A stretch of 64,000 nt of DNA from a virus (taxonomy: Duplodnaviria > Caudoviricetes), in the IMG/VR virus record IMGVR_UViG_3300005077_000012, positions 1-64,000 of that record, one strand, 5' to 3'. The translations under genes and the position numbers were made by a program. Of this stretch, positions 43,266-62,732 are shown in pieces. The notes beneath the pieces are model-generated. The model ran no database searches. It had not been told where the DNA came from and saw only the letters and a program-made list of their open reading frames with translations. The stretch's first letter is position 1. The number at the start of each line of letters is the position of its first letter.

Positions 43266-43274
43266 GATGCCCCC

Positions 43275-45639: not shown

Positions 45640-46305
45640 TTACTGAACGCTCTTGATCAGGGCAACGTGCCGCTCATCAAGGGGTATGTTTTTATTGAGT
45701 CTGCCCTCGATCTTTGTGACATCGAGAACGTCGAGCTTGCCTGCTTTGCAGAGCTTCATCGCTTTGTCGAGAATTTCGACACGGGACAGTGCGGAGGCCG
45801 CTTCCACAGCCTCAAACCTGTCACCGGACTTCCTGAGCACGGACCGTGACGGTACCGGCGCATCGCCGATCTTCTCAACGGTGTCCCGGACGGCCTTCTG
45901 CATCTCGGCAGACGCCACCGCGAACTGGACCTGCGCCTTGCTCAGAGCCGCAACGTCCTTAATGCTTTTCTGCATGGTGCTCACTGCCGCGTTCACCGCA
46001 GCGAACTTCTCGTCGATCCCCTTCACCAGTGATCTCAGGAAGGGCTCGATATCCATCGCGGCACCCGCATCTGCATCGTCCTCAGCGACAAACTCTTCGA
46101 GAGACTTCATGGTCGGCTTCTTGCCGTCCTCTTCGTCATCCTCATCGCCTTCTGCTTCCTCTTCTTCGCCGGGGAATTCGTTCGCTTCCTCGTCGTCCTT
46201 TTTCGCCTTCTGGAACGAGTTGAGAGTAGTCTTCAGCGACTCCAAAGAGTCATTGAAGGACTTCTCCATATCCTCAAATCCAACGGCTTCTAATGCCTTT
46301 GTCAT
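45640..46305 (-). CDS. Capsid scaffold protein, putative
   Basis: 221 aa acidic coiled coil with about 10 x-x-K-[AS] motifs; lies between protease and MCP. Confidence 0.7.
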   Translation of the reverse strand: MTKALEAVGFEDMEKSFNDSLESLKTTLNSFQKAKKDDEEANEFPGEEEEAEGDEDDEEDGKKPTMKSLEEFVAEDDADAGAAMDIEPFLRSLVKGIDEKFAAVNAAVSTMQKSIKDVAALSKAQVQFAVASAEMQKAVRDTVEKIGDAPVPSRSVLRKSGDRFEAVEAASALSRVEILDKAMKLCKAGKLDVLDVTKIEGRLNKNIPLDERHVALIKSVQ

Positions 46306-46307: not shown

Positions 46308-47153
46308 CTATCCTCCAAAATAATTTTGTATTGTAGGCAATTTTCTTGTGATATATTGTATCAGCTCTGCTGATATGTTCGACGGGTACCCCCGGGACAG
46401 GATGAACTCCATCACGTCGTTATACGACTTGACCTTCCCGCTGGTGATCGCCGCCAGTAACGCGTCAAACACCCGACGGAGCTCCCCGTACGGGATCGAG
46501 TAGCCCTGCGCGTTGAACGTATCGCTCAGCTCCGATCCCTGTAAACTCTCCGGGGTCAACGCGCGCCCCCCGGTAAACGCCTCCGCATTGACCCCATCGC
46601 CTGCCATGAGGGCCTTCGCGAACTGCGCGAACGGGATGATCGAAACATGACCGAGCGTGCCGTCATTGACCGGCTTGTGTGTGATCGCGGTCTCATCCCA
46701 GATCACACGCATTATCATCCCCTTGACACCACCGGCGGACCCCTTCACTTTTTGGATTATTCCGCCGCCCACCGACGCACCGAGCTTCTTCGCCCCGGAC
46801 AGGATATTCTGCCAGAGACCCTGCGAAATCTTGTTCTCTTTATACAGGAACCCTTTTACCAGTGTTTCATTCCGGTCCGTAAATGCGACGTCACTCGGCT
46901 CGCCTATGATGTATTGAGGATCGTGAATCTGCTTGTGCTTGTGGTCCCACGACAGGACGCCGTGTGTCAGATAGTAATCTGCCGCCTCCTTCAGGGCTTT
47001 ACAGAAAACCACCTCAGAGTCCTGATCACGACTCTCATTCGACGCCTGCAGGTACACGTTCCACTTGCCGTCCTCCTCGACACCCTTAACAAGGGCCGAC
47101 GCAAACGGAGAGTAAAACTGATCGCCACCCGCTGCCTGTATTGTCCTGCTCAT
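46308..47153 (-). CDS. Prohead protease
   Basis: ASNESRDQDSE, SWDH, GEP, LGASVGG, AIT..PVN motifs of phage prohead serine proteases. Confidence 0.8.
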   Translation of the reverse strand: MSRTIQAAGGDQFYSPFASALVKGVEEDGKWNVYLQASNESRDQDSEVVFCKALKEAADYYLTHGVLSWDHKHKQIHDPQYIIGEPSDVAFTDRNETLVKGFLYKENKISQGLWQNILSGAKKLGASVGGGIIQKVKGSAGGVKGMIMRVIWDETAITHKPVNDGTLGHVSIIPFAQFAKALMAGDGVNAEAFTGGRALTPESLQGSELSDTFNAQGYSIPYGELRRVFDALLAAITSGKVKSYNDVMEFILSRGYPSNISAELIQYITRKLPTIQNYFGG

Positions 47154-47263: not shown

Positions 47264-47446
47264 TCACAGTCCCCGATGGAGCTTGCCGCACCGGCGGCAC
47301 TTCACCTCGATGATAGACCCTGACGACTTATAAAGAACCTTGTACAATAAGGCCCCGCAGTCGGGACAATTCACATCATCCGTATCGGGGCGTCTTACAA
47401 CTAACTTGTGCTTAATATAGCCAACTTCCCGTTGTTTGTCAACCAC
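47264..47446 (-). CDS. Com-like zinc-finger protein (start uncertain)
   Basis: VNCPDCGALLYKV....GSIIEVKCRRCGKLH matches the Mu Com pattern C..C..LL....IEIKC.RC. Confidence 0.6.
   Translation of the reverse strand: MVDKQREVGYIKHKLVVRRPDTDDVNCPDCGALLYKVLYKSSGSIIEVKCRRCGKLHRGL
47414..47442 (-). promoter_or_regulatory. Sigma70-type promoter upstream of capsid operon
   Basis: TTGACA (47437-47442), 17 bp, TATATT (47414-47419). Confidence 0.75.
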
Positions 47447-47447: not shown

Positions 47448-47906
47448 TTATTCGACCTCGGACTGTAACGCATCCGAGACAGCGTCTGCAAAATTCCTCG
47501 AAACGCCCTCCAGCTCCTCGACCGCAGCCTCAAGATCGGCCTCGGCCTGCGCCTCGATCGGGGCCGTCAGGTGCTCGGGAATACCGAGGTCCTTCGGCTC
47601 CGTCAGGTCAGAGGTCCCCTTCAACATCCCGTCAACCTCCTCCCGGGTCTTCAGCCCGAGACGGACGGCCGCATACTTACTCCACTTCTCAGAATTCGCC
47701 GGGTCGTAGAAAACAACCGTCAGCGATCGCGACCCGTCATCGAAGTAACACTCCACGCCATTCCCGTACGAGTCAGACTTGAAATACGGACAGGCCCCGC
47801 ACTCCACGTTCAAAAACTCTTGTGTCAACTTGACGATCTTGTCGACATGGAAGCAGTACACCTGCCCCGACGCATCCGCCAGATTGATATGGTTCGTCCT
47901 TGCCAT
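47448..47906 (-). CDS. Hypothetical Cys-containing protein
   Basis: 152 aa, GGGAGG RBS, C..CP.F...G.EC.F motif, acidic tail. Confidence 0.65.
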   Translation of the reverse strand: MARTNHINLADASGQVYCFHVDKIVKLTQEFLNVECGACPYFKSDSYGNGVECYFDDGSRSLTVVFYDPANSEKWSKYAAVRLGLKTREEVDGMLKGTSDLTEPKDLGIPEHLTAPIEAQAEADLEAAVEELEGVSRNFADAVSDALQSEVE

Positions 47907-47917: not shown

Positions 47918-50809
47918 CTACTTAAACGATACGTCGACCCACGCCACCGGCACGATCGCCTTCGGGTTGCGCACACACCACTCATCATGCTGCAGCGGAT
48001 TGCCGACCCCCGTATAACTCATAGACATCCCCTTCTTCCCGTATATTGTATCCCACTGAGAATCGTCCCGCTCACGGACGTGATCCCCGGGAGAGACTTT
48101 CCCCATCGACGTCCGGCACTGGAGCATAACCCCGGAACCGCTCCGGGAGAATGTCCCGGCCACGTACTGCGCGCTCTTCGAGCTCGACTTCGCGAAGTAG
48201 ATACCATCCCCGAGCAGACGCCCGTTCTTCGCCGAACCGACCCGCATCCCGCCTTTAATGATACTGGCCCCGGCCTGAAAGTCCGTTCCGTGGTACAGGT
48301 ACTGCTGATTGTCCTTTGCGTTCTCAATCGCTTTGTAGTCCCCGTAATAGTCGTGGTACATGACCTCCATGACCGCATTGACCTGCAACCGGTCTGAACT
48401 GTACCCGGACGACTGGTGACTCCAGTCCGCCTTGATCTTGTCCATCCACTCCTTCTTCCCGGAGTCGCCCTTCCCTTTCAGGACGATCGTCGGCATGGTC
48501 CGGTTCCCCTTCGTCTTCATTCCCATACTGATCGCGAGCTGTTCGGTTCTGATACCCTTGATCGCCGTGTGGTAGGCGTCTGACCCCAGCATGAGCTGAT
48601 CCTTCTTCACTGGATTGTTCGGTGCGTGCGGTTTCAGACGACCCCAGCTCCACTCCGGGATAACCCGGGACTTCTTCGCCAGAGACCGCACGTTCCAGTT
48701 TGCACCGACCGCATACATCAGACTGGCCGCAGCAACGCCCTGAACGTACTGTGCATTGTACCGGTGATACTCAGACACTGACGCAACCGTCGTGTGGAAC
48801 TTTCCCCGCAACAGGTTTTTTCTTACCGACTCATCGGTCTTCCCGAACTCTATCGCCGTACCAGACCGGTCCTTCTTCCACCCACCATACCCCTTGCTCG
48901 ACGAACGCCACCGCCGCGTCGACGGACGAACGGCAGTGCTCATCTTCTTACCCATGTAATACTTGACAAGGCCCATTGACCCCGGCATCGCGTCGCCGTA
49001 ATCCTTGAACCGGACATCAAAATTCACGACCGAGTTTGAGTACCGTCGATCGCTATCCCGCACCGCGCCGGTACATATTCGCTCCAACCCATTATCCAAA
49101 TCTACCAGAGAGTACATCTCCAGAGACATAGCATCTCGATACGGTGTAAACAAGTTCTTCACCGCCTGCATGGTAGACTTCTCGTTGATTGGATACTTCC
49201 CCAACGTCCTGCCCGCATCGATGATCGAGTCAAAATACTCCATCCCTTTCCCTACATATCCACCGGTATTCGGATAGGAGACGTTGATCCCGTTATTCCA
49301 CTTCACGGTCTTCGCGCGCATCATACTCTTCAGATCGTTCGCAATATCACGCCACGTTGCCTCAGGGTTCAGATGCACCTTTTTACTAACCCCGTTACCC
49401 CGCGCGACCGCTCCGAGCTCAACGTAGTCCCGTGACTGCAACCACGAATCTACGGAGTACGCCGAGTCCGGGACAACCACATACTTCTGCAGGAACGCAC
49501 TGATCGCCGGGTACTTCTTCCGAAGGGACTCCCCGGCAGCCTTCAGATCGTCATAACTGTACTGCTTCACCGGACCCGAATACGATGACCCAGACCATCC
49601 CGTATTCGCCACCTTCCCGTACTTCTCAAGCCACGGTTTGATAACCTTCTCACCATAGTCCGGATGCAATGCGCCCATTACAAAAGACGTGTACGTTTCA
49701 GAATCCCAATGCTGGTGTGAATTATAAACAACATCATCGATACCCAGCACCGTAAAAAACTCTTGTACCTTCGACGGCAGGTCCTTGTAAACGTCCCTCC
49801 AACGCTCGGTCACAGCAAGCAACTCCGCTCCCGGAATGATCGTGGAGACCAGTGCCCCCGGGAGCCGGTCAAGACTCTGCGTCCCCCGCAGAGAATAATC
49901 CAGCTCGCCCAGCTTCTCCAGCAGGCGCTTGTCATTTTCTTGCGCCTTCAGCAGGTTGATCCACCGCTGTGCAACCACCTGCGACTCCTCAACCTCACGA
50001 TCAACGGCCGCATCGATAGCGCCCTGATTATATCCGTACCAGTTCTTCTGGACATACTCCGTAACGCGCTTCTTGTATGCTGCGGTCTTCGCCTCCGCCA
50101 GAAACTCCTCCATCTTCGCCTGCACCTCTTCGAGAAACAGCGGGTCCTCCAGCCACTTTCCATCGGAGCCCATCGGTATATCCGGGGCGATCTTCCCGAA
50201 CTCGGTCTGCTGCTCCTTCGTCATCTTGAATATGTTGTCAAGGTTCTTCGACACATACTCCTCGGCCTCCTTGTTCAAGCAGAGCACACCCGTGATATCA
50301 CACAGGTCCCGGGCATCATCGCTGGCCTCACGCCAGTAGAGCTGGTGCTTCTTCGGTGCCTTGTCCAGCTCGGCGTCAGAGGGCCGATCGGAAGACACCG
50401 GGCTCGCCTGCCCGGACTTGCGCTTCTCTTCCTCCTCCTTCTTCTTTTTCTCCATGTTGTCTTTCATCTTGCCCAGACGTTTCTTGCGGGCCTGCTCGTC
50501 TTCGTATGCCTTGACGTCCGCAGGCGTGACCATGCCGTCGTACACCCACTTGCCGTTTGCGTCCTTCCGGACCCACTGCGCGTGCTTCGTCCCGAACCCG
50601 TGTATCTTCCGGGTCCCGATCGGGAGCGGAGCCCCTTTCCGCAGCGTTTCGAGAAAAATTACAAGGCGCGCCTTACTTATCCCGGCCATGCGCTTGTATA
50701 CTCCCATCACATAGGCGTAGTCGTCACCGCGCCCCTCCCGGGCGGCGGCCTCCTTTGCTTTCTCCCACTTCGCCTCGTCGACCGGCTTCCCGTGTATCTT
50801 CTTCGGCAT
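47918..50809 (-). CDS. Large head-associated protein with C-terminal PARP-like ADP-ribosyltransferase
   Basis: YLYHGT, GRLLGDGIYFAKSSSKSAQY, HDEW (H-Y-E triad); ATG 50809 with GGAGG RBS; N-terminal tag module. Confidence 0.85.
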   Translation of the reverse strand: MPKKIHGKPVDEAKWEKAKEAAAREGRGDDYAYVMGVYKRMAGISKARLVIFLETLRKGAPLPIGTRKIHGFGTKHAQWVRKDANGKWVYDGMVTPADVKAYEDEQARKKRLGKMKDNMEKKKKEEEEKRKSGQASPVSSDRPSDAELDKAPKKHQLYWREASDDARDLCDITGVLCLNKEAEEYVSKNLDNIFKMTKEQQTEFGKIAPDIPMGSDGKWLEDPLFLEEVQAKMEEFLAEAKTAAYKKRVTEYVQKNWYGYNQGAIDAAVDREVEESQVVAQRWINLLKAQENDKRLLEKLGELDYSLRGTQSLDRLPGALVSTIIPGAELLAVTERWRDVYKDLPSKVQEFFTVLGIDDVVYNSHQHWDSETYTSFVMGALHPDYGEKVIKPWLEKYGKVANTGWSGSSYSGPVKQYSYDDLKAAGESLRKKYPAISAFLQKYVVVPDSAYSVDSWLQSRDYVELGAVARGNGVSKKVHLNPEATWRDIANDLKSMMRAKTVKWNNGINVSYPNTGGYVGKGMEYFDSIIDAGRTLGKYPINEKSTMQAVKNLFTPYRDAMSLEMYSLVDLDNGLERICTGAVRDSDRRYSNSVVNFDVRFKDYGDAMPGSMGLVKYYMGKKMSTAVRPSTRRWRSSSKGYGGWKKDRSGTAIEFGKTDESVRKNLLRGKFHTTVASVSEYHRYNAQYVQGVAAASLMYAVGANWNVRSLAKKSRVIPEWSWGRLKPHAPNNPVKKDQLMLGSDAYHTAIKGIRTEQLAISMGMKTKGNRTMPTIVLKGKGDSGKKEWMDKIKADWSHQSSGYSSDRLQVNAVMEVMYHDYYGDYKAIENAKDNQQYLYHGTDFQAGASIIKGGMRVGSAKNGRLLGDGIYFAKSSSKSAQYVAGTFSRSGSGVMLQCRTSMGKVSPGDHVRERDDSQWDTIYGKKGMSMSYTGVGNPLQHDEWCVRNPKAIVPVAWVDVSFK

Positions 50810-50834
50810 GGCTATACCCCTCCAGTAATCTTGA

Positions 50835-51968
50835 TCATGCGCCCGCCTGCTTTGCCATCGCAGCGTCGAGCATATCATAGTATTTCTTCATACCCGGCGT
50901 ATACCGGGTCCATGTACACCTGCAGTGCGGGTGTTGCGTCCCGGCAGCAACCCACCACTCCCGGGCCTTCCGTCCAAAATTGTTCTTACCCGGCCAGATC
51001 GCGGTATACCGGGTCCCGTCAACCTCTATCGTATCATCACCACCGGACGGGGCCGCATCCAGCAGCACCACGATCCGTCCGTTGATGTGTGTGGCACAGA
51101 ACGTACAGGCCCCCGGCCCGGACACCCCACGCATGAACACGAACTCATCCGGAGACGTCACCTTCTCGGCCACCAGATACCCGTTATTAAAATTCGTCGC
51201 GGTCTCGGTCTCCGCGATCCTGCGCCAGTCCCGGTTGAGTGTTGAGAACGTATCGAACAGCTTCCGCTCGGTCTCCCGGGCCGTCAGGCGGTTCTTCTGC
51301 GCGTCCAGTATGGACGACACCACCGCCCGGCGCGCGCTGTCCGATATATCCTGTATCAACTCCCCGGTATGCACTTCGGAGAAGTCCCTAATGTTCCGGT
51401 AGACCTCGTCGGCCGTCAGCTTCTTTACCTCGGCGTCGACAGCAGGTTTCAGGTCAGTATACGTCTTGCTGATCTGGTCCTCGACCGGCATCCCCTGTAA
51501 TATCTTACCCAACGCCATCGCCCGAAGGACCAGAGACTGCTCGACCTCACCGAACAGGTACCCGAAAACACTGTCCAGATCGTGTGCAATCACCTCCCAC
51601 TCCGCCCGGGTCAGGGCCTGCCCGGTCGACGGGTTTATGTACGTCGTCCCGTTCAGGATGAACGGATCATCCCCCACGGCCTTGCGAAATTCATCGAAAT
51701 GGTCCCCCATCCCCTTCGCGACATCCAGCCTCAACCACTTCGTCGTAATCTCAGTCAGGACCCGCTGCAGCCCCGCCCGCACCTGATCCCGCAGAATATC
51801 GCTGAGCTCCTGCAGGGCCGGGTAGGGCGTCGGCTCGGTTTTCTCGGTATGGTTGTGTGCAACCTCGGCCGGGACCTTCAGGGCCTTCGACAGGGCCTCG
51901 ACGACTGCCCGGAGCTTCTGCTCCGCCTTGTCTTCCGGATTGTGTATCTCAATTATGATCTTTTCCAT
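50835..51968 (-). CDS. MuF / SPP1 gp7-like head morphogenesis protein
   Basis: RRIAETET...FNNG, C.FC, HPHCRC.W motifs. Confidence 0.85.
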   Translation of the reverse strand: MEKIIIEIHNPEDKAEQKLRAVVEALSKALKVPAEVAHNHTEKTEPTPYPALQELSDILRDQVRAGLQRVLTEITTKWLRLDVAKGMGDHFDEFRKAVGDDPFILNGTTYINPSTGQALTRAEWEVIAHDLDSVFGYLFGEVEQSLVLRAMALGKILQGMPVEDQISKTYTDLKPAVDAEVKKLTADEVYRNIRDFSEVHTGELIQDISDSARRAVVSSILDAQKNRLTARETERKLFDTFSTLNRDWRRIAETETATNFNNGYLVAEKVTSPDEFVFMRGVSGPGACTFCATHINGRIVVLLDAAPSGGDDTIEVDGTRYTAIWPGKNNFGRKAREWWVAAGTQHPHCRCTWTRYTPGMKKYYDMLDAAMAKQAGA

Positions 51969-52088
51969 AGCCCTCGTATTCGCTTCCAGAGGCCCTGTAC
52001 GGGGCCCGCGCAGGCTCCGGGTAGGTTACCCCTCCCCGGGCAGATCGGACGCTGCCCCACGCAAAATAACGGCAGTAGCGGCCGACCC

Positions 52089-54440
52089 TCAGAACAGTCT
52101 GTGCCGGAGCCCGACCACATACGCCAGACGCCGGATCGCTTTCAGCAGTTTCGGCCCGAAATGCTTTTTCAACAGGCCCTCGAACTTCCCGTCCTCAAAC
52201 ATCGCATAGGTCGGATCGACCTCCGGGAACCCCCAGCCGAACGGATTGTCCGCCGCGTCCCCCACCGCATCCATACGCTCGTCCGTCGTCGTATACTCCG
52301 GCTGCTTCGCCTTGTACCGGATAAACTGGTCAAAGGTCCGGGCGAACACCTCGTTGACGTCGCCCCAATACCGGGACCGCTTCGAGTAATAGTCGGAGTG
52401 TGTCTGCTTGCGGAATGAGTGTACGGTAACCTCGGACAGGTGCTGTGAATACATCTCGAACGCTCGGTCCACAACCTTTGCCGGTGCAAAACGTACCCGG
52501 TCAACGATCGATTTCAGATCGTCCACAGAATAGACTCCCTTCGTCTCCGATACGATCGCAGGACCATGCTTGTCCGGGTCATTCAACGCATTGCGCAGCG
52601 TCGAAAGGAACTCATCCGGCGTAACGGTTCCGTACCGATCATCCGCCTGATTAGCGTTGTGGAGCATGGCACGCAGGCTCGGCTCAACGATCTCAACGAA
52701 CTTCAGGACATCCAGACCCTTACGCCCGGCAAGGTCCGGGTGCGCCGTCAGGTACCCGCCGATTTCCGACAACGCCACGGCAGACGACTGATCGATGTAC
52801 GTCTTGAACGCCGCATGAGACGGATTGAATGTCTCCTTGATCTTCTGCTCAAGACCAGACGCCTTGACCCACTCCTTGAACTCGTCGACCAACACCTTCC
52901 CGCCCCGGTAAAAAAAGTAATGTCCCGCTTCGTGTACGATCGCCCCCGGGTACGACGGGGAGATATTCAACGAATGGTCCTTCTCGACGTAGAACCCGGC
53001 CGCCTTCTTCGACGCCTTCGCAATCCGCAGGATCATCTTCTTCCCGTCTGACGGAACGTAGTCCTTGAAATTGACCACGGACGAGATCGTCGAGAACACC
53101 TTGAACAATGCCCGCAGGCTCGGGGCCGACAGCTTCGCCTCCCTCCCGGGGATGATCGCATCGGTTGTGATCTCCAGACCGATCTCATCCCGGAACGCGG
53201 TGACGAGCTTCGCAATCTTCGGATCAGTCGCCATCAGGTGATCTTTATACCCGGCGGTCCCCTTGACGTACTTCATGATCCGCTTCTTTGAACTCTCATC
53301 CGCGAACTTGTTCAGGACCCCCTCGATCTTGTCGTACGGTATCGGAATGTACGGCAGAACGAGGATCGAACGCCGCGTCGGATTGACATCGGAGAACTGG
53401 AGTCCAACCCGGCCGTCAGTCATCACCATCGAACCGGTTATCCCCAACTTCCCGATCGGCTCACGCTGCATCGCATTGTAGGATTGCCTCAACTGCGCAG
53501 CGGCGGCAGTCGCATAACGCAGATTGGATATGGCGTTCCTCGAAGGAACATCCAGACCGGACTGCACACTCTCAAGGGCCATCAGGTCCTGATACAAGGT
53601 TCCCGCCGCGCCGATCGACTTCGAGTCCAACAGGCCGTCCTCGAAGTCCTTGAGCTGCTTCCACCCGGTATAAAAGTCTGCCGCGTCCGGCGGCTGCACT
53701 TTCTCCCGAACCGCGTCCGGGAGCGCGTCGAGTTTTTGCTGCAGGCTCTCCAGAACGGCCTTCAGCGCATACTCCATCGACGGAGCCGACTCATAATCCC
53801 ACGTTGCCGACATCGCGGCCTCGGCGTCCAGCCCGGGAACCTTCTTTTCCTCAGCCTTCTTCGGAACCACCTTCGGTTTCTCCGGCTTCGGCCGCGTCCA
53901 CATCGCCACCGACGGCCGCCCCATAATCTTCTCATCATCGTCCAACTGCACCCGGTCCCACGTCACGATCTCAGCGTTGGCGTCCTCCTTGCTCAGGCGG
54001 AAGCGTTCCTGCGCCTCCTCCAGTGTCAGGTTGTCATACTCGGTAACCGGGCTGCCGTCGACGTGCACAACGAACACACGGTGCGTGTTCGCACGCTTCG
54101 CCTTCGGAGCATCGGGCTTCTTCACCTCCGGGGCCTTCGACCCTTCCATGAGCTTGTGCTTCAGTACATATTTGACGATATCGGTGTCGCCCTTCAGGTC
54201 GTGCCCGACTTCGGCCTTCACCTTCTCGATGATCTCTTTGCGTCGGTCCGCAGTGAGCTTCGCCCACCAGTCGAGAACCTTTGCACGCTCAGGCCACGGC
54301 CGGGCACCCTCATGCACCCCATCAACGACCTCAACCCACTTCTTATCCGACGCCTTCCGATACTTCCGACCCTTCCATTCCCGGATCGTACCAACCGGGT
54401 ACGCCTTCCCTTTGATCATCAGTCTATAGATTTTTAGCAC
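52089..54440 (-). CDS. Head-associated zincin metallopeptidase / LPD1-like polyvalent-type protein
   Basis: IVHEAGH (HExxH) and downstream EVFARTFDQF; N-terminal tag module; GTG start with GGGGAG RBS. Confidence 0.7.
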   Translation of the reverse strand: MLKIYRLMIKGKAYPVGTIREWKGRKYRKASDKKWVEVVDGVHEGARPWPERAKVLDWWAKLTADRRKEIIEKVKAEVGHDLKGDTDIVKYVLKHKLMEGSKAPEVKKPDAPKAKRANTHRVFVVHVDGSPVTEYDNLTLEEAQERFRLSKEDANAEIVTWDRVQLDDDEKIMGRPSVAMWTRPKPEKPKVVPKKAEEKKVPGLDAEAAMSATWDYESAPSMEYALKAVLESLQQKLDALPDAVREKVQPPDAADFYTGWKQLKDFEDGLLDSKSIGAAGTLYQDLMALESVQSGLDVPSRNAISNLRYATAAAAQLRQSYNAMQREPIGKLGITGSMVMTDGRVGLQFSDVNPTRRSILVLPYIPIPYDKIEGVLNKFADESSKKRIMKYVKGTAGYKDHLMATDPKIAKLVTAFRDEIGLEITTDAIIPGREAKLSAPSLRALFKVFSTISSVVNFKDYVPSDGKKMILRIAKASKKAAGFYVEKDHSLNISPSYPGAIVHEAGHYFFYRGGKVLVDEFKEWVKASGLEQKIKETFNPSHAAFKTYIDQSSAVALSEIGGYLTAHPDLAGRKGLDVLKFVEIVEPSLRAMLHNANQADDRYGTVTPDEFLSTLRNALNDPDKHGPAIVSETKGVYSVDDLKSIVDRVRFAPAKVVDRAFEMYSQHLSEVTVHSFRKQTHSDYYSKRSRYWGDVNEVFARTFDQFIRYKAKQPEYTTTDERMDAVGDAADNPFGWGFPEVDPTYAMFEDGKFEGLLKKHFGPKLLKAIRRLAYVVGLRHRLF

Positions 54441-54441
54441 G

Positions 54442-55224
54442 CTACTCCCCCATCAGATCAGACATCAGCTTCTCCATCTCTCGGTCCAGCCCGCGCAGTT
54501 CCTCCGCCGTCGTCTGTGAAACCTTCCGCGCATGATACAGGATTTCCCGCAGACCCATCTGTATCTTCGTTACCTGCTCCATGTTCGCATCGAATAACTC
54601 CTCCCGGGTCACATCCGCCGCGTAGAAGTACAGATCGTTCAGGATGGAACTCGCCAGCGCAATCAACGACTCGACCTTCCCTTCACTGAAGGTCCGGAAC
54701 TCCACCTCGTCAAACTCCTCCATCGGGTGCTCCCGAAACATATTCCGAACCTCACGCAGCAACTGAGTCCGCAATTCAACCAACACCAGACGGTAGATAT
54801 TAAACGAGTCACACAGAGTCGCGTGCTGGATGGACTTCCGCTTCAACAGGTCGATGTATATCCCCTGCATCAACAGCAGCAACTGATCACCACGCTCCTC
54901 GGCATAACTCATCTGCCCGCGTAACAGCAGCACGTTCCTGATCTCCAGCTTCCGGGTCAAGAGCTTGACCGTCTGGTTCAGCATCGTCACAACATCCCGG
55001 GAATGAGGGCACATCGCGTGCGGGCTCTTGACAGGCTTCGCCTTCGCCCTTCCCGGAACCCCGTCACCACCGATGTCCAGCTCCTTACCGCCGCTCACGA
55101 TCCGCAGACCCCGACGGACGATCAGGATCGCAGAGTACCCCAGCATGAACGTCAGGCCGGACGCGAATACCATCTGAAACCACTTCGGCAAGTCATTGAG
55201 CCAGTCTATAAATGTCGTAAACAC
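54442..55224 (-). CDS. Membrane-anchored helical protein, hypothetical
   Basis: N-terminal hydrophobic helix FQMVFASGLTFMLGYSAILIV. Confidence 0.65.
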   Translation of the reverse strand: MFTTFIDWLNDLPKWFQMVFASGLTFMLGYSAILIVRRGLRIVSGGKELDIGGDGVPGRAKAKPVKSPHAMCPHSRDVVTMLNQTVKLLTRKLEIRNVLLLRGQMSYAEERGDQLLLLMQGIYIDLLKRKSIQHATLCDSFNIYRLVLVELRTQLLREVRNMFREHPMEEFDEVEFRTFSEGKVESLIALASSILNDLYFYAADVTREELFDANMEQVTKIQMGLREILYHARKVSQTTAEELRGLDREMEKLMSDLMGE

Positions 55225-55260
55225 CGAAACCCCCCGCGCACGATCCCGAACGCCGTCACG

Positions 55261-58002
55261 TTAAATCCGGACCCACTGATCCGCTGCTTCTTTCCTGTAA
55301 CTCACCCCGGCGCGGGAACGCTGCGTCCCGATCGGGAGTGCTCCGCCCCGGTTGAGCTGCCAGTAGCGCTCCTCACGCTTGATACTCTTCGCGAGATCGT
55401 CCGGGAGCTCCTGCGACTTCTTCGCTTTCGCCTCACGGAACTTCTTCGCCACGAACGTCCCGGCGGCGTCAATGCTGGAGAACTCGCCCTGACTCTCCCC
55501 ACCACGCTCCACGGACACTTTACCGGAACCGTCGGTGTGCTTCTTCACGGACCACCACTCACCGTCAGGACCTTTTACTGTACCCGATGAATCTCCTTCC
55601 ATACTCTCAAGGATACCCTCGGCCTCGGCGGACAACCCGTCGTCCCCGGCAGGCTTCGCATCGGACTCATGTCTCTCTCCAGACGACACACCGTAGTTCT
55701 TCACATACTTCTCCACCGCCTCTTTAACAGTCTTTGACTGCGCCGTCGTCGAAAGGTAATGGAGCCGCTTTGTATCCGGGTCCTTATACCCCAGATCGAT
55801 CTGTCCGTGATTGGTCTTCCACCCCTTGATTGTATCCAGATTGATCTGAGGGTCTTTGACTCCCAGCTCCTTCAGCTTGTTTAAAATCGGACGTGCGTTA
55901 TACTTCGACCCACCACCAGCAGCGGGCTTGCCCTCTTTCACAGGCTCCCACTTCCCGGCAGCGACCTTCTTGTACTTCTTCCCCTTCCAGTCACGGATTG
56001 TCCCGGGCGGAAGTCCTCGGCCTTTGTTCAGCCAGACCACCGTGTCCTCCTTGCGCAGCTCCTCGATCGCCTTGCTCATGTCTTCCGTTTCGAGAAATTT
56101 TGCAGGCGTCTCTGCAACCTCAAGCTCCGCATCCGGAGTCGTCGTCCCCAGCCCGATATTCCGCTTCGCGTTCAACGTCAATTTCCACTCGTTCATAAAT
56201 TTCCTCGCCTTAAATAGTTTGCCCTGCCCTTCTGCCTCCATCGCAGCATCCCGGAGCTTCGACAGGTTTTTCTTCGCCTCTATATGTGTTTGTATCGCCT
56301 TCAGATCATCCGGATCAAGCTCCGACCGCAATGCCGCTTCAGGGACTTCCTTCCATCCCCCGGTCCTCGATGAATGATCATAGTACTCGGCCTCGACTTT
56401 GCCCTCGGCAGTCACCCGGTACCCATTCGCGTCCAGTATGTCCTTGATTGACTCAGGGTCCGCATCTGCCTTCGCCTGATCGTACCGCTCCTGCGCCGAC
56501 CCGCCGCGCTTCTTCTCCGCACGCTTCCCGGACTCATGCTTCTCGCGCTCGGCAGCCAGCTCCTTCTCCATCCGGGCCTTGTCATCCGCATCGCGCTTCG
56601 CCTGCGCTGCGTCGCGCTCGGCCTGCGCCTTCTTACCCGCCTCGTATTCCCCGGGAAGCTCGTCGATCCTCTTGCTGACCTTGTCCGCACCCTGCTTCTC
56701 GACGATCTTACCCAGCGCATTGATCGCCTTCTGCCTGCCCCCCAGCTCCCGGACAACCAGCATCCCGGTCTTCTTGTCAACCAGAGCGTACCCGGCCTTC
56801 CCGGACGGGAACGTCATGTCAAACCCCCAGAACTCCCGGTCAAGGTCCTTCACCTTCGCGGGTTTCATCGACGTACCCTCGGGGACCTTCACCACATTCC
56901 CCATGTGATCCGACACCTCGGTCGGGGCCTTCTCACCTTTCGCTGCGCCCTTGTCCGATTTCTTCACGGCAGCACCGGCCTGCTTGCTTGCCTCGGCAGC
57001 CCCGGCCACACCGCCGCCTTCGCTCGTCGCCTCGACGGTCTTCGCCGCGCCCTTGACGGCGGCCTCACCTTTGCCCGCAGCCTCTTTGATCCCACCCGCA
57101 ATGTCCTTAACCGAATCAGATATGCTCTGTGAACTCGACGTCGACGCCTGCTTCTTTAACCGCTCCAGCATCGCGTCCAGATTGGACTTGTCCTCACTGT
57201 CCGGCAGGTTCTTAATGTCCGACTTCAGCTTCTCATACGTCGCATCCCCGAGCTTCCCGCCCGTCTTCGGGGCCGCATCAGAATCACGCCCTCCCGTACG
57301 CACCGCCTTTACCGCAGCCTTCACCTGCTCATCAGAGGCCCCGGGCTTCAACTTCCCCGTAATTTTGTTAAGTGTATCCACGTCGAGTCCGATATAGTCA
57401 TTGCTCGCAGAATCCTCCGCGCTCCACGCCCGCATAACACGGTTCTCCAAAACCGTCTTTTCACCTTTATCCATCTGGGGCTCCCCAGCCTGCGCATCAC
57501 CTTCAGGCTCGCCCTTCGCTGCACCCTTGCCACTCTTCACGCGCACCCAGCCGGTGTCTCCCTTGCGGTACTTCTTTCCCTTCCATTCCCGGATAGTCCC
57601 GACCGGCAACGCCTTCCCCTTCTCCAGAGACTCCAGCTCTCGCAGACTCTTCGCTGCACTCTCCATCCTATCAAGACGGGTGTAATAGTCCGGTATCTCG
57701 GCCAGATGATCCCGCGCAATCTTCTCGGCCAGCTTCGGGTCATCGGTGTGCTCGGCCTCGACCTCGATCCCACGCTTCAACTGCTCCGGGTCCGGGCTCG
57801 TCTTCGCGGTCTGACTCCGGCCCTTACCAATGAAAGACCCCAGAATCGCATAGATCATCTCCTCGACCCCGTGCTTGTTCCACCCATGCGCCTCGGCCCA
57901 CTCATGGACCTCGTAGTCCTCCGGCTTCGGGTTCTCACTCAAGAATCGCTCAACCTGCAGCCTGCTCGGGCGTGCCTTATCGAGTTTTTGTACGCGTATC
58001 AT
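55261..58002 (-). CDS. Large Lys/Ala-rich head-associated protein with DUF5661-like N-terminal domain and three tag modules
   Basis: G..VE.EH..D...A.KIA.DHL.E.PDYY.RL motif (family recalled from memory); three P.GT modules. Confidence 0.65.
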   Translation of the reverse strand: MIRVQKLDKARPSRLQVERFLSENPKPEDYEVHEWAEAHGWNKHGVEEMIYAILGSFIGKGRSQTAKTSPDPEQLKRGIEVEAEHTDDPKLAEKIARDHLAEIPDYYTRLDRMESAAKSLRELESLEKGKALPVGTIREWKGKKYRKGDTGWVRVKSGKGAAKGEPEGDAQAGEPQMDKGEKTVLENRVMRAWSAEDSASNDYIGLDVDTLNKITGKLKPGASDEQVKAAVKAVRTGGRDSDAAPKTGGKLGDATYEKLKSDIKNLPDSEDKSNLDAMLERLKKQASTSSSQSISDSVKDIAGGIKEAAGKGEAAVKGAAKTVEATSEGGGVAGAAEASKQAGAAVKKSDKGAAKGEKAPTEVSDHMGNVVKVPEGTSMKPAKVKDLDREFWGFDMTFPSGKAGYALVDKKTGMLVVRELGGRQKAINALGKIVEKQGADKVSKRIDELPGEYEAGKKAQAERDAAQAKRDADDKARMEKELAAEREKHESGKRAEKKRGGSAQERYDQAKADADPESIKDILDANGYRVTAEGKVEAEYYDHSSRTGGWKEVPEAALRSELDPDDLKAIQTHIEAKKNLSKLRDAAMEAEGQGKLFKARKFMNEWKLTLNAKRNIGLGTTTPDAELEVAETPAKFLETEDMSKAIEELRKEDTVVWLNKGRGLPPGTIRDWKGKKYKKVAAGKWEPVKEGKPAAGGGSKYNARPILNKLKELGVKDPQINLDTIKGWKTNHGQIDLGYKDPDTKRLHYLSTTAQSKTVKEAVEKYVKNYGVSSGERHESDAKPAGDDGLSAEAEGILESMEGDSSGTVKGPDGEWWSVKKHTDGSGKVSVERGGESQGEFSSIDAAGTFVAKKFREAKAKKSQELPDDLAKSIKREERYWQLNRGGALPIGTQRSRAGVSYRKEAADQWVRI

Positions 58003-58240
58003 GTTTCTTGCCTCGCTTTGATTTTTTCATGCTTGAACCTGTATGACTAACGAGTGCCAGAACCTCCGGGATCGGAGAGCACCTGAGACACCCGTAAATA
58101 TAATTCCCAACACCGCCATGCCACGGACCAACTTCCACCCTGAACATCCACTCCCAGCGGAACGAACGCTCACACAACACACACCGTCTCCTCCGAAACG
58201 TGAACACCCTGTGCACCCGGGTCGGCCCACCAGCACGCAC
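57977..58240 (-). CDS. Small CxxC-containing hypothetical protein
   Basis: CVLC...CLRC; start uncertain. Confidence 0.4.
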   Translation of the reverse strand: MRAGGPTRVHRVFTFRRRRCVLCERSFRWEWMFRVEVGPWHGGVGNYIYGCLRCSPIPEVLALVSHTGSSMKKSKRGKKHDTRTKTR

Positions 58241-58506
58241 TACAGGACCTCCATCAATATCCCGCAGTACTGACCCACGTACAGCTCGCGCTCCACCGGT
58301 CCCTCGAACGGGCTATCGTACGTCAAGACCCGCTGCTTGTCCGACTCGACAAGGTCCTCGGGCCCGACCTGATCCCCATCCACATCACAATTCGCTCCGA
58401 CATAAAACGCATCCGGGTCCAGCGTCTCATACCATGCACCCATCCCGATCAGCGTGCGATTTTCCTCGATACCGCGCCAGTACTCCACAATGTTATACGC
58501 CATCAC
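58240..58506 (-). CDS. Hypothetical protein
   Basis: 88 aa acidic ORF with overlapping start/stop coupling. Confidence 0.6.
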   Translation of the reverse strand: MMAYNIVEYWRGIEENRTLIGMGAWYETLDPDAFYVGANCDVDGDQVGPEDLVESDKQRVLTYDSPFEGPVERELYVGQYCGILMEVL

Positions 58507-60536
58507 CGCAACTCCCGCATTATAGTCTGATAGATCGTCTCGAAGTGTCCGTTCCAGATCGCTCCACCCTGATCGTACTTCATGAAATTGGCCTTGAACT
58601 TCTTCATGCCTTCAACCCCGTCCTTCTGGACGACCTGATTTTCAAGGAACCGCTTTTTCTGTTCAGGCTTCAGCTTGTATACATACTGCAGGTTGTCCCG
58701 TATATGCTGATCAGTCTCCGGCGTCGTCTTATATCCCCGGGCAAGGAACTTGAACGACCTGAGCGTATAGCGCGGAGAGTGTGGTAACATCTTCGGATTG
58801 CAGAACTCCAGCGTCTTGCCCTCCAGTGCCGAGAGACCCTTCCCGGTCGCATCAATCATCACCCCGGTCAACGGGTCCAACTGCAGCGAGTTGATCGTGA
58901 AGTCCCGGGACTCAGCGTCGCCCTTCAGCCGCCAGCCCTTGACCTGCCACGATGGAACGTCGTCAGAGTGTTTGTGGACCGGCGTGATATCCACATCGAC
59001 CCCGGCGTCCTTGATAGTCACCAACCCCAGCCGGTCATTCAACGACCACGTATTCGCCCACGCCGGATTGAGTCCCTTGACTATGTGCTGCAGCTCGCCG
59101 TCAGAGCAGTTCGCAATGAAGTCAACATCCTTCGAGTCCCCGCCCTGCAGGAAGTCCCGGACGGTCCCACCCACGATCGTCAACGTGAACCCGGCAGCCT
59201 TGAACGTCTCACACAGCTTCCGGTACGTCACCTTCGATTTACCAATACGCGTCTCCATGACCTTCGCCACCGACGCGGCCATCTCCCCAGAGATATGAAA
59301 CAGGTTTTTATCTTCCAAACCATCATACAGCGAGTGCTCCTGTATTACCCCGTCAGGCTTAACGTTCTGCCAGCGTGAGTCGATCACCCGGCCATCGCTC
59401 ATCTTGATCAGTGCAGTTCCCTTGTTCCCCAGAGCAACCAGCTTCCCACGCTGACCGGAATACTTCTGGTGCCCCTGCCCGGTATAGACCACACTCTGCC
59501 CCTCGATCATCCGGTCCCGACGCGTGGTATCCTTTATCAACTGCTGCGCGGCCCCGGCGGCCACATCCTGCAGCTTCCCCACCTTGACACTGACCGCATG
59601 GTCCTGTAGCGCCTGCGCCGCTGCCTTGTTCTGCGCCGGTGTCGGGGCCTTCGCGCCCGGGTTTACCACACCGTCGTACAGCCACTTCCCGTCTGCACCC
59701 TTCTTGTACCAATAGTTCCCGTACTGCTTGCGTGTCCCGATCGGATCGCCGCCCTTCTGCATTTCGAGATATTTTGCAGGCCCGAACCGCATCGTCCTGA
59801 AATTAAACAAAGGGACCATCATCCCGATCCCCTTCGATAGATCATCCAGATCATCAGCACTCTTCTTGTACCCCAGCCGCTCGCTCAGGGCTTCCTTCGC
59901 GGCCTGCTTGCGCTGCGCATCCCGCTCAGCCCACTGCGAACCCTTTGCGCTCTCGTCCGGGCCCTTCGCCGGAGCTTCGCCATCCTTCACCTTAACAATC
60001 TTCACCGCGCCCTTGATCGACTGGACGTTCCCCTGACCTTCCGGGGCTTCAGGATTGAAACGGGTCTGCCACTGCATCGCGAACTTGCCATCCCGGGAAT
60101 ACAGCCGCTTCTGCTCATGGTCCAGACGCCCACCCCGGAACAACTTCCGGGACTCGTCCCCCAGCTCGCCCATCGCCTCCTCAAACCGGTGCGACAGCTT
60201 CGCAGGCGTGTTCACGTACGCCGTCGCCATGTCTTCCTTGTCCTCAGTGGACATCTCCCCGGACGACGGGTCCCCGGGCTTGTCCGATCCACCCCCGGGA
60301 CGCTCGGCACCCTTTTCCTTCCCAGCACCCAGCGGGGACCACTGCCCCTCGGCAACCTTCCGATACTTTGTTCCACCCCAATCAGCAACGGTCCCGACAG
60401 GCATCCGCTTGCCCGCCTTCACGAACGCCTCCGCGTCAACGCAGTTAACCCCGTGGTACACAGGGCCAGACAGGTCGTCTATCATTTCGAGAATTTTTGC
60501 AGGTGCCACAACCGGAAAGTCTAATATTCGTGCCAT
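58503..60536 (-). CDS. Head-associated class II (CCA/poly(A) polymerase-type) nucleotidyltransferase
   Basis: IVGGTVRDFL...KDVDF, DAESRDFTINSL, PRYTLRSFKF; two tag modules and a KOW-like segment upstream. Confidence 0.85.
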   Translation of the reverse strand: MARILDFPVVAPAKILEMIDDLSGPVYHGVNCVDAEAFVKAGKRMPVGTVADWGGTKYRKVAEGQWSPLGAGKEKGAERPGGGSDKPGDPSSGEMSTEDKEDMATAYVNTPAKLSHRFEEAMGELGDESRKLFRGGRLDHEQKRLYSRDGKFAMQWQTRFNPEAPEGQGNVQSIKGAVKIVKVKDGEAPAKGPDESAKGSQWAERDAQRKQAAKEALSERLGYKKSADDLDDLSKGIGMMVPLFNFRTMRFGPAKYLEMQKGGDPIGTRKQYGNYWYKKGADGKWLYDGVVNPGAKAPTPAQNKAAAQALQDHAVSVKVGKLQDVAAGAAQQLIKDTTRRDRMIEGQSVVYTGQGHQKYSGQRGKLVALGNKGTALIKMSDGRVIDSRWQNVKPDGVIQEHSLYDGLEDKNLFHISGEMAASVAKVMETRIGKSKVTYRKLCETFKAAGFTLTIVGGTVRDFLQGGDSKDVDFIANCSDGELQHIVKGLNPAWANTWSLNDRLGLVTIKDAGVDVDITPVHKHSDDVPSWQVKGWRLKGDAESRDFTINSLQLDPLTGVMIDATGKGLSALEGKTLEFCNPKMLPHSPRYTLRSFKFLARGYKTTPETDQHIRDNLQYVYKLKPEQKKRFLENQVVQKDGVEGMKKFKANFMKYDQGGAIWNGHFETIYQTIMRELR

Positions 60537-60647: not shown

Positions 60648-62231
60648 TCACTGGACGATTATACGCAGGACGCGCTCGTCTCCCATTGACTTCTCAAACG
60701 CGGCCCGCCAGTCTTCTCCGGGCTCCTGCCCATCTTCAGCACCATCGCCACCCGGCTCTCCGCCGTCCCCCGGCAGCATCTCCTCACCGGGGACGCCTCC
60801 AGCTTCCGGAAGAGCTCCCTCATCTCCGCCATCGTCAGGCGCGCCTCCGGGCCCCCCCATCGTCTCGGCCTGCTTCGACTGTGCGTATATCTGAACAGCC
60901 TGCGGATTGAGAACAACATTCGCGTAATCGTCTTCGATCGGATCATCACCGTCCTCCTCCCGCAGCTCATTGATAGTCTTCGTTGTCTCGATCATCTGCC
61001 GCCGTATCTGCATCCGCTGGAGCTCGTCTTCCCGCTCGATCCCGGTGAACTCAAACGACCACTCCGTCGTGACCTTGCGTATGATCTTACCGACGTGCTG
61101 CTCAGCGAACGCCAGCAGTGAACTCAGGCCGCGATCCCGGGACGCCTTAATCCTCGGCTCCCCACTCTCCCCGATGATCGACTGACTGTCATCCGCCTTG
61201 ATCCCGATCTCAGCAAGGTCGATCGAGAACACCGCACCGATAACCGACGACAGGAACATCATGAGCTTGTGATATTCCATGTCCCGGTTCGACTGCCCGA
61301 GATTTTTGAAGTCCATGCCGACGCCCTCTTTCCCGCTCGGCAGGATCGGGATATTCCACGCTCCCCCGGCCCCGCTCATGGCCGCGTACCAGTACCGGCG
61401 GATTGAGTCCATCTGCGTCTGCCCGATGTCCCCCATTACCGATATGAACCCCTTCGGCACCCGGTCCCGGACGAGCTGGTCCCGGATGTAGTTATACCCG
61501 AACAGCAGCGTCGTGATCAGGTCAATGCACTGCTCAACCGGAGAGTAACCCCAGCCACGGAACCGCAGGTCCACCCGCTTGTTCTTGTAGTCGAACAGCA
61601 GGTCCTCGGACGTGTACTGGTTGTAAATTTTGTTGTCGATCTCTTGAACGAACCTGATGTCCTTCTTGAATGGACTCTGGTCCACCTCGGTAGTCACGCG
61701 CTTGATGTACGCCCCGTCCAGCAACCAGAACGCGATCGCCTCGCCCTTCCGGTTGTACTGTATCTCGGTCGCCACCTGATCGATGACCAGCGTCTCCCGG
61801 ATCAGCATCGACAGGTAGTCGCTGAAGTCGTCCTCGCGGTCTGCATCATACTTGAACCCGGTCTGATCTATGAAGTTATGCAGCTCCCGGATCAGGGCCT
61901 GATCCCCCTTGACCGACTCCTTCCCGTCCCCGTCCATCGTCCGGATCAAATGAAACCCGCGCTTGCCACGCTCCTCGGTGAACTTCGTGAACGGCAGGCA
62001 CTGGTCGATCCGTGCGTTGACGATTGCGTTGATCAGCGGAATACGGTCCACGGTGTTGCGGATCGTAATGTAATTTATTCGGAGCAGCTTCTCCCGGACT
62101 CCCCGGAGTGCCCCTGACTGGACGAACGACATATACTCGGGCATACTCAGCAGTGATTGGAGCTTCGCTGCAGTCGCCTCCATGTTGATCAAGGCCGACC
62201 GCCTCTCTCCACGCTTCGTACGCTTCGCCAT
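60648..62231 (-). CDS. Portal protein
   Basis: RETLVIDQVATE, GWGYSP.EQ, P.G.IS, MDF..L.QSNRDMEY motifs; ATG 62231 preferred because the promoter overlaps 62282. Confidence 0.9.
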   Translation of the reverse strand: MAKRTKRGERRSALINMEATAAKLQSLLSMPEYMSFVQSGALRGVREKLLRINYITIRNTVDRIPLINAIVNARIDQCLPFTKFTEERGKRGFHLIRTMDGDGKESVKGDQALIRELHNFIDQTGFKYDADREDDFSDYLSMLIRETLVIDQVATEIQYNRKGEAIAFWLLDGAYIKRVTTEVDQSPFKKDIRFVQEIDNKIYNQYTSEDLLFDYKNKRVDLRFRGWGYSPVEQCIDLITTLLFGYNYIRDQLVRDRVPKGFISVMGDIGQTQMDSIRRYWYAAMSGAGGAWNIPILPSGKEGVGMDFKNLGQSNRDMEYHKLMMFLSSVIGAVFSIDLAEIGIKADDSQSIIGESGEPRIKASRDRGLSSLLAFAEQHVGKIIRKVTTEWSFEFTGIEREDELQRMQIRRQMIETTKTINELREEDGDDPIEDDYANVVLNPQAVQIYAQSKQAETMGGPGGAPDDGGDEGALPEAGGVPGEEMLPGDGGEPGGDGAEDGQEPGEDWRAAFEKSMGDERVLRIIVQ

Positions 62232-62284
62232 TCGTTTCTCCGATGTGTGTGTAGTGTGTGAGCCTTCCCTCTCTCTCACCATCT

Positions 62285-62313
62285 ATAATATATTATGTCG
62301 CCTGAAAAAGCAA
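62285..62313 (-). promoter_or_regulatory. Sigma70-type promoter upstream of portal
   Basis: TTGCTT (62308-62313), 17 bp, TATTAT (62285-62290) in an AT-rich patch. Confidence 0.55.
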
Positions 62314-62457
62314 GTACTTTTTCTGTACGCGCCGTTCCACCACCTGCACCTATATAATAACGAGAGCGATACAACCACGTATCGCCCCCTACTGACCCAC
62401 CCATGAGACACAATACCCCTTGTGTCTCACATACCGTCCCCCGTGAGACGCAATCCG

Positions 62458-62664
62458 TCACGTACAGACCGGGGACGACGTCACCACGTATCCCGGGCTG
62501 CATCGCCAGCACTCCGTCACGGTCGGACTGTACACGGAACCGCACCGGGGGCACTGCCACCCGAACTGCAGCGGCACCGACGGCACCCTGTTCTTACAGG
62601 GCCAGCACACCCCGTCCACGTCCGCGCTCGTCAATTCCTTCCCGCATATCCTACACCCTGACAT
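62458..62664 (-). CDS. Small Zn-finger protein
   Basis: CRIC...CWPC...GWQCPRCG..YSP....C..C; GGAGG RBS. Confidence 0.65.
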   Translation of the reverse strand: MSGCRICGKELTSADVDGVCWPCKNRVPSVPLQFGWQCPRCGSVYSPTVTECWRCSPGYVVTSSPVCT

Positions 62665-62691
62665 CACTTCCCTCCGCGCCCGCATACCCGA
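62661..62691. repeat. Imperfect direct repeat with 63723-63748, flanking the methylase cassette
   Basis: CATCACT(T/C)CCCTCC plus CCCGCATACCCGA present at both sites. Confidence 0.7.
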
Positions 62692-62732
62692 TAGTAATTC
62701 TCGTTGTATAACCTTCTGACTTAATTTGTTTT

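Follow-up and report, generated by a model that had tools for sequence, protein, structure and literature searches.

Phage proteins carried in the capsid are at work before the expression of phage genes begins, which makes them prime candidates for first-strike counter-defence or host takeover. To our knowledge there is no sequence rule for recognising such cargo outside T4 and P1. The principle of capsid cargo is well established, through the T4 internal proteins and Alt, P1 DarB and the polyvalent proteins (PMC12373910, PMC9024508, PMC5512222, PMC9503650). The internal proteins of the T-even phages have only an N-terminal leader in common, which directs packaging and is cut by the prohead protease; the proteins vary from phage to phage and inhibit host defences (PMC12373910). 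Alt is a head-packaged ADP-ribosyltransferase (ART), and PARP-clade ARTs have already been noted near head genes (PMC9503650). In P1, the first 30 residues of DarB are enough to bring a reporter into capsids, and a consensus among the Dar N-termini was suspected by the P1 authors but not found (PMC9024508), while P1 DarA-Hdf lines the inner capsid wall and contacts the DNA (PMC12810830). Packaging and processing have also been predicted for polyvalent proteins, and zincins proposed as the enzymes responsible for the latter; ArdC-N has been proposed as a header, in conjugative elements only, and PBECR2, InPase and ddrB-ParB are described as specific to the phage-type proteins (PMC5512222). Here we describe a block of genes lying between the portal and prohead protease genes of the viral record IMGVR_UViG_3300005077_000012 (IMG/VR; 87,219 bp, 96% complete by estimate), of which the window is the first 64 kb. 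Its four large proteins share a short tag.

We consider it probable, at roughly 60%, that this block is a cargo cassette, whose products would be packaged, trimmed and injected with the DNA, in the Herelleviridae-type head module of an uncultured myovirus. All genes in the window are on the minus strand, and they are transcribed in the order portal, NTase677, orf88, KA913, orf260, Zn783, MuF377, PARP986, orf152, protease, scaffold, major capsid protein (MCP). A preliminary description of this DNA had seen between portal and protease a short MuF protein with no toxin and four large proteins, and gene calls and Pfam, PHROG and BLASTP matches together confirm this. SPO1 has the same head module with the portal adjoining the protease, which makes the 12.6-kb block an insertion. 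The capsid protein is a member of phrog_752 and has about 29% identity to its counterparts in SPO1-like Herelleviridae and in some Thermus and Pseudomonas phages. The tail is contractile, with a phrog_279 sheath. No close relative was found among 50,697 GenBank phages.

The tag is about 30 residues long, with the consensus h-x-K-G-x(1-3)-P-[VI]-G-T-x-R-x-W-x-G-x-K-Y-x-K-x(3-4)-G-x-W. The record has seven copies, two in NTase677, three in KA913 and one each in Zn783 and PARP986, and neither a six-frame pattern scan of the window nor a profile search of the whole record found any more. The tag is thus common to all four proteins, as first described, but not as one copy each: a protein may have one to three, some of them internal or C-terminal. 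AlphaFold2, given an alignment of 34 sequences, models the first KA913 copy as a helix (residues 4-28) followed by a three-stranded beta-meander (38-41, 44-48 and 53-56), with a pLDDT of 81-88 over the strands. The net charge of the tags is +2 to +8. The PARP986 subtype, with its four-residue insertion, is also found in the PARP homologues P0017 and P0053.

As the tag is short and rich in Lys and Gly, it might be a chance or low-complexity resemblance among Lys-rich proteins. We give this reading next to no weight. In a genome-wide profile search, which finds none elsewhere, the seven copies have E-values from 5e-13 to 6e-21; the G, T, K and W positions do not vary among the 34 aligned sequences, which come from many contigs; and the small fold is modelled with confidence. 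When 1.84 billion cluster representatives were searched exhaustively with HMMER, the tag profile matched 1,154 clusters at E<=1e-3, 332 of them at E<=1e-10. The invariant columns, the library search and the genome profile refute a chance origin; judged by its conservation, the tag is a real family.

We found no known family or fold for it. No model in Pfam (E<=10), NCBIfam or PHROGs covers the tag, and a Foldseek search of the PDB with the tag model gave nothing below E=0.36, its top match, a 34-residue fragment from the phiKZ capsid map, not being significant. A match to the UBP nucleoid protein (E=0.009) is at chance level. Two Trp, a Pro and three strands recall a WW domain, but this is a resemblance only, with no profile or fold match. 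We found no published description of the tag, although the LPD families outside Pfam were not inspected, and it is possible that it has been described under another name among LPDs never entered in Pfam.

The preliminary description expected a profile of the tag to find proteins with variable enzymes after it, and this is what the library search returned: tags mostly near the N-terminus, followed by different domains. A separate word-indexed profile search gave 88 proteins, some of them from T. putidum and T. socranskii. Among 202 proteins retrieved, the first tag has its median at residue 55 and lies within the first 120 residues in 89%; 43 of the 202 have two to five tags. Downstream are LPD3, ddrB-ParB, PBECR1, PBECR2, PBECR3, LPD13 and LPD1, but also TsaD-like, Zeta toxin, InPase, MuF_C, NUDIX and PARP domains, and one relative joins the tag to a C3/VIP2-type ART (ADPrib_exo_Tox). 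ART-PolyVal is also carried by tag-bearing relatives. In the Treponema-type proteins the tag is part of a header of about 130 residues, made up of a leader helix with the conserved pattern F.YFK.K.L.HL..LE, the tag, a further helix and an ELxQxVLENRxRFSD segment.

Homologues of the tag were also expected to be associated with head gene clusters. We scanned IMG/VR, GTDB genomes and metagenomes by pattern and obtained 48 loci of readable length (L numbers below), of which 43 have a portal, MuF, protease or MCP gene within 10 kb of the tag gene, which often lies exactly between portal or MuF and protease. Two arrangements recur. One runs portal, MuF (or MuF-InPase), a DarB-like methylase-helicase of 1,800-2,100 aa, tag protein, a protein of about 416 aa, protease-scaffold and capsid; the other runs protease-scaffold, capsid, neck proteins, tag protein and tail sheath. 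The hosts, where named, are mostly Treponema, carrying prophages, with Acutalibacteraceae and one Bacilli metagenome-assembled genome. On a 109-kb metagenomic contig (L037, 8807-11002) a tag with an upstream K-S lies inside the scaffold part of a 731-aa protease-scaffold protein.

The head module closest to that of the window is on an 85.7-kb contig (L054), which has a separate 261-aa protease, an acidic scaffold of 215 aa and a short MuF. Its cargo region (4422-10026) encodes a 230-aa protein joining the tag to ADPrib_exo_Tox (an R-S-E ART), an 853-aa InPase-ART-PolyVal-DUF5661 protein and a 423-aa protein with two tags, followed by the bare MuF. The locus thus keeps MuF, protease, scaffold and MCP but has other cargo, which fits the modular system that had been proposed.

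HK97 and A511-type proteases cut after Lys. The proteins of this head module contain a strict motif, phi-x-K-[AS]-phi (phi, hydrophobic), that from its distribution is a candidate recognition motif of the phrog_1028-type protease. The scaffold has six such sites where 0.5 are expected, a number reached in 0 of 500 shuffles, and the whole window has 26 in 20,652 residues. The MCP has a single site, LSK|AL, at residues 25-29, and its alignment with the MCP of L005 (35% identity) begins exactly there; MuF377 has LSK|AL in the same place, at residues 26-30. The protease has FAK|AL at the end of its protease domain, and the protease-scaffold fusions of L005, L010, L012 and L018 have six or seven strict sites each, all after the protease domain except for one, MRKAI at residue 28 in L012. 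Eight sites are found in the scaffold of SPO1, and its MCP has LNK|AL. In the literature we found no usable measurements of where capsid proteins of the SPO1 or A511 type are cut.

The same motif is found in front of tags. Each of the three tags of KA913 has a strict site 14-17 residues upstream (AAK|SL, MSK|AI and LAK|SI, at K118|S, K644|A and K872|S). Of 262 tags, 66% have K-[SAT]-phi at a distance of 9-25 residues on their upstream side; for control windows in the same proteins the figure is 15%. In L005 the capsid protein has ELQK|AL, the protease ELKK|SL and the cargo ELKK|SL. A candidate cut motif common to head proteins and cargo, as claimed in the preliminary description, is thus present in its strict form in the scaffold, the protease, the N-termini of MCP and MuF and the regions before the KA913 tags, but absent from PARP986 and NTase677.

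The window protease has a second feature: the stretch after FAK|AL (46485-46622, aa ~178-225) copies the N-terminus of the MCP (45480-45560) with 51% identity, sharing the segment A-G-x-G-V...F-T-G-G-R-A-L-x-P-E-S-L. The same mimicry is seen in L005, L012, L018, L054 and L034, the last being the cultured Bacillus phage SPO1, the form common to these phages being A-G-x-G...F-T-G-G-R-A-L-x-P-E-x-L. Through its MCP-like stretch the protease may be incorporated into the shell where a capsid N-arm would otherwise lie.

If the block encodes cargo, its products would be expressed with the head proteins, and the four basic proteins co-assembled into the prohead core. Each would have a header cassette, with an optional helical leader, a candidate site phi-x-K|[AS]-phi and, about 15 residues later, the basic beta-meander tag. 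The prohead protease would use the same motif to trim the MCP, degrade the scaffold, cut itself and remove the cargo leaders, and chains with several tags would be split at K|[AS] sites into units each headed by a tag. Once the scaffold is degraded the basic tag-headed enzymes would stay with the DNA, exit with it and work early on the host, in takeover or counter-defence. We infer packaging, cleavage and ejection of the tagged proteins from their sequences, and likewise the identity of the address, leader or tag, and the binding partner of the tag. The four large proteins have net charges of +10 to +31 and the scaffold -16; our guess is that the tag binds the acidic scaffold first and the DNA later. 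Lying downstream of the candidate site, the tag would be kept, and it may serve after cleavage, in contacts with the DNA or the capsid wall or in exit, instead of or besides addressing.

The position of the candidate site raises another arrangement, which we think unlikely. The proteins would still be packaged, but the tag, rather than being an address, would act as a basic module for DNA binding or for another task after cleavage, holding units on the genome, neutralising DNA charge or guiding exit through the portal, and targeting would depend on the cleavable leader, MuF or other contacts. With the site in this position, the mature protein would keep its tag, and if so the leader, not the tag, may be the address, as in T4, where the address is the part cut off (PMC12373910). 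Multi-tag proteins have one tag per unit, superfluous for loading an uncut chain, and the tags are basic. Leaders are conserved, both in the Treponema type and, as DUF5661 or DY.Y...RM....K[AS], in two window proteins, and P1 DarA-Hdf touches both capsid and DNA (PMC12810830). However, Zn783, P0020, P0028 and others start with the tag, which argues that a leader can be dispensed with and that something else must load these proteins, and the searches above showed no similarity to a known DNA-binding fold.

Several observations weigh against the cargo reading. The strict site is absent from PARP986, which has only K-A-R, and from NTase677, which has only V-K-A-G. The looser x-x-K-[ASG], which the preliminary description had pointed to in all four large proteins, is no commoner there than in composition-matched shuffles (p 0.21-0.44) and is rejected as uninformative. 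K-[SA] falls within a predicted helix and may serve the structure of the module instead of being cut, and Zn783 and several homologues lack leader and site altogether. The DarB-like giants that adjoin tag genes (L005:4326-9788, L012:111-5630, L026:4315-9774 and similar) have no tag by profile, so that some presumed cargo does without one. The 48 loci are phylogenetically clustered in one head-module lineage and some contigs are in two collections, and the context counts therefore overstate independence. Finally, at the sensitivity used, tblastn with a window tag and with a 190-aa tag protein gave no match in the 50,697 GenBank phage records, and none of the cultured phages searched has the tag.

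That last result would also suit a quite different explanation, which we regard as improbable: that the four proteins are late cytoplasmic enzymes which are never packaged, working in host takeover, RNA or NAD metabolism or counter-defence, with the tag as a regulatory, oligomerisation or localisation module and the place in the head operon incidental. Promoter-like sites lie within the block and before the protease gene. But late genes cannot supply enzymes for the start of infection unless the particle carries them, and the virion-block context of 43 of the 48 loci comes in two slots, portal-protease and MCP-sheath. The tag is also fused to domains known from packaged proteins, including ddrB-ParB, MuF_C, InPase and Alt-like ARTs (PMC5512222), is found in L037 within a protease-scaffold protein, and is preceded by a motif common to MCP, scaffold and protease.

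A broader version of the cargo reading is possible, though doubtful. The cassette could be a portable code for loading, cutting and keeping a handle, read by one widespread head lineage with a phrog_12 portal, phrog_1028 protease and phrog_752 capsid, the Herelleviridae head included, and polyvalent giants would arise by end-to-end fusion of cassettes. Any protein bearing the cassette would be enclosed, freed by the protease and passed by its basic handle from scaffold to incoming DNA to host.

Each window protein has one recognised enzymatic domain, although large unassigned regions may hold more. The PolyA_pol domain of NTase677 (PF01743) scores 63.7 bits against a cut-off of 23, and poly(A) polymerases and CCA-adding enzymes in the PDB match at E=3e-6, with only head and neck aligned. 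GGTVRD...DVDF aligns to PDB 4wby, so that the GG.VRD and D.D head motifs are present. NCBIfam equivalogs score 38-54 bits, below every cut-off (290-439), and no body or tail domains aligned. From these alignments the enzyme appears to be a truncated class II nucleotidyltransferase of CCA/poly(A) type.

The ART domain of PARP986 scores 53.7 bits with PF00644 (cut-off 26.7) and matches solved chains of PARP2, PARP3 and tankyrase, PARP3 and tankyrase at E=5e-6. YLYHGT and GIYFA...SAQY align with PARP3, while the putative catalytic Glu, in HDEW, is outside the aligned stretch and was placed by eye, giving a putative H-Y-E triad. The true start is likely to be Met24 (50809), and a 963-aa form of the protein exists on record.

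Zn783 is probably a polyvalent-type zincin, judging from several weak signals. It has an HEAGH motif, and an LPD1-like region (residues 687-715) at 19.9 bits, below the cut-off of 27; its HExxH and E..AR.F regions give weak colinear matches to one LPD1 protein. Atlas language-model features score 0.96, with 17 of 30 matches in LPD1 clusters. A search for related loci with the whole protein gave no match.

KA913 (K 12.7%, A 11.4%) has an N-terminal DUF5661 at 53.8 bits (cut-off 27). Its Atlas structure model has a pTM of 0.21, and Atlas returned no function for it. DUF5661 is also found as stand-alone proteins of about 126 aa, nearly all viral, and recurs in the cargo of relatives. The KA913 leader (57658-57786) resembles that of PARP986 (50690-50740) in the stretch before K-[AS], with the pattern D-Y-x-Y...R-M-x-x-x-x-K-[AS].

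MuF377 matches residues 307-662 of the MuF-InPase protein of L005 (BLASTP E=3e-27), which itself scores 28.3 bits with Pfam Phage_Mu_F (PF04233), just under the cut-off of 29.6 (E=3.1e-6). A direct Pfam search with MuF377 gave no match, and its PHROG minor-head matches are weak. The coordinates of these features are collected in the table.

Table. Position of the block, its tags and domains and the neighbouring head genes in the 64-kb window.
Feature	Position	Strand	Description	Evidence
Portal	60648..62282	-	544 aa; upstream border of the array	PF04860 E=2.8e-14; phrog_12 E=8.6e-38
NTase677	58503..60536	-	basic (+15); two tags; C-terminal class II nucleotidyltransferase head/neck	PolyA_pol profile
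NTase677 tag copy 1	60276..60491	-	P at residue 46	E=6.2e-21
NTase677 tag copy 2	59613..59765	-	P at residue 265; subtype PIGTRK...KGADGKWxYDG	E=4.1e-15
NTase677 nucleotidyltransferase head/neck	58602-59222		aa ~439-645	PF01743
orf88	58240..58506	-	small, acidic (-13); follows the NTase gene	open reading frame; gene status uncertain
KA913	55261..58002	-	Lys/Ala-rich, mostly predicted disordered; three tags	N-terminal DUF5661
KA913 DUF5661	57658-57786		aa 73-115	53.8 bits
KA913 tag copy 1	57493..57690	-		E=1.8e-19
KA913 tag copy 2	55870..56085	-		E=5.6e-21
KA913 tag copy 3	55264..55419	-	at the very C-terminus	E=5.0e-15
orf260	54442..55224	-	untagged; N-terminal hydrophobic helix; follows the KA913 gene	open reading frame
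Zn783	52089..54440	-	tag at the extreme N-terminus, without leader	HEAGH and LPD1-like region
Zn783 tag	54279..54425	-		E=4.4e-20
Zn783 HEAGH	52920-52934		aa 503-507	
MuF377	50835..51968	-	MuF/SPP1-gp7-type minor head protein, without effector domain	BLASTP; HPHCRC motif
PARP986	47918..50878	-	basic (+31); one tag; C-terminal PARP-like ART	PF00644
PARP986 tag	50486..50698	-	subtype with four-residue insertion	E=4.7e-13
PARP986 ART domain	47921-48394			PF00644
orf152	47448..47906	-	small, acidic (-15); Cys-rich N-terminus; follows the PARP gene	open reading frame
Prohead protease	46308..47153	-	281 aa	phrog_1028 E=9.6e-15
Scaffold	45640..46305	-	221 aa; charge -16; acidic 30-mer of -15	six phi-x-K-[AS]-phi sites
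Major capsid protein	44235..45620	-		phrog_752 E=5.5e-66
Tail sheath	22346-24043			phrog_279

Three smaller open reading frames of the block, orf88, orf260 and orf152, matched no known family. A possible role for their products is to keep the cargo enzymes harmless in the producing cell, as inhibitors or chaperones. The gap of 294 nt between orf152 and the protease gene has a sigma-70-like site (47414-47442, minus strand), which is an 11/12 consensus match only, and a terminator-like hairpin with a 12-bp stem, again a consensus match only, lies just upstream of the portal gene (62362-62389, minus strand). Portal and cargo may form one transcription unit, and protease, scaffold and capsid another.

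Elsewhere in the window, the stretches 34000-38000 and 62000-64000 have a G+C content of 0.42-0.49, against about 0.56. One of them covers a tail-fibre gene (35899-37362), the other a phrog_67 DNA methyltransferase (62733-63533) just upstream of the portal, and the low values suggest recent acquisition. Directly after the capsid gene (41916-44201) are two paralogous proteins of 308 and 449 aa with repeats of Y-x-A-H-R-V-L-x-x-G-S-V-H-G-x-A-D-x-T-N and no PHROG match, which may be decoration or metal-binding proteins. In the related loci, the DarB-like giants start with phi-x-K-[AS] and then a basic, hairpin-like H-K-Y-I-R-R-x-P-K-x-x-G-K-G-x-x-Y-I-Y; this N-terminal segment is possibly a divergent header.

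What appears to be new here is a folded, retained and repeatable tag joined to a prohead-protease motif, together with its breadth and a polyvalent repertoire split between genes. If the cargo reading is true, header and protease motif would be a searchable marker of capsid cargo in uncultured phages and would offer a way to explain the modular build of polyvalent proteins and their cutting into units. They would also give a testable handle for putting foreign proteins into capsids. A PARP-like ART and a truncated CCA/poly(A)-type nucleotidyltransferase would be placed among the enzymes likely to be injected.

Among the systems closest to the one proposed are the T4 internal proteins and Alt, where likewise unrelated proteins have no more than a short N-terminal signal in common. 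The window system has in common with Ip1-3, the hypervariable ip loci and Alt the proposed loading into the prohead, trimming and injection, a cargo that varies among relatives, and one ART (PMC12373910, PMC9503650, PMC9024508). The T4 capsid-targeting sequence is a leader of about 10 residues with no sequence likeness to the folded beta-meander of about 30 residues described here, which lies downstream of the presumed cut site, would thus be retained, and is also repeated within proteins. The protease here is of another family, phrog_1028, with a candidate Lys-[Ala/Ser] motif, whereas that of T4 is of the gp21 type and recognises L/I-x-E, and the cargo consists of large enzymes of 677-986 aa. 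By analogy the window system would work like T4-type cargo without being a member of that class.

The enzymes themselves are those of the polyvalent proteins (Iyer, Burroughs, Anand, de Souza and Aravind 2017, PMC5512222): ART, zincin/LPD1 and nucleotidyltransferase in the window, and PBECR, ddrB-ParB, InPase and LPD3 in its relatives. The head-gene neighbourhood beside portal and MuF is alike, and the same packaging, processing and injection are proposed. However, polyvalent proteins have two to fifteen domains each, whereas here the activities are in separate genes, with one recognised enzyme apiece and a bare MuF. Autoprocessing by the zincin was proposed for that class, while here the candidate cut motif suggests the prohead protease instead. 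None of the Pfam LPD models matches the tag, and we found no phage-type header described (PMC5512222).

P1, as proposed for the window phage, loads its head with several separately encoded proteins that are delivered to the host (DarB, Ulx, DdrA, DdrB, DarA and Hdf), of which DarA and DdrB are processed (PMC9024508, PMC12810830). Relatives of the window phage have DarB-like and ddrB-ParB proteins beside their tag genes, whereas the block has no homologue of DarB, DarA or Hdf. One module is conserved here across many proteins and phages, in contrast to the Dar N-termini with their lack of a consensus, and the P1 MCP is cut after Glu120. The MuF polymorphic toxins and SPP1 gp7 share with this locus a MuF head protein beside the portal and an association with effector delivery. 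MuF377 has no C-terminal effector, however, and the presumed effectors are instead separate tagged genes.

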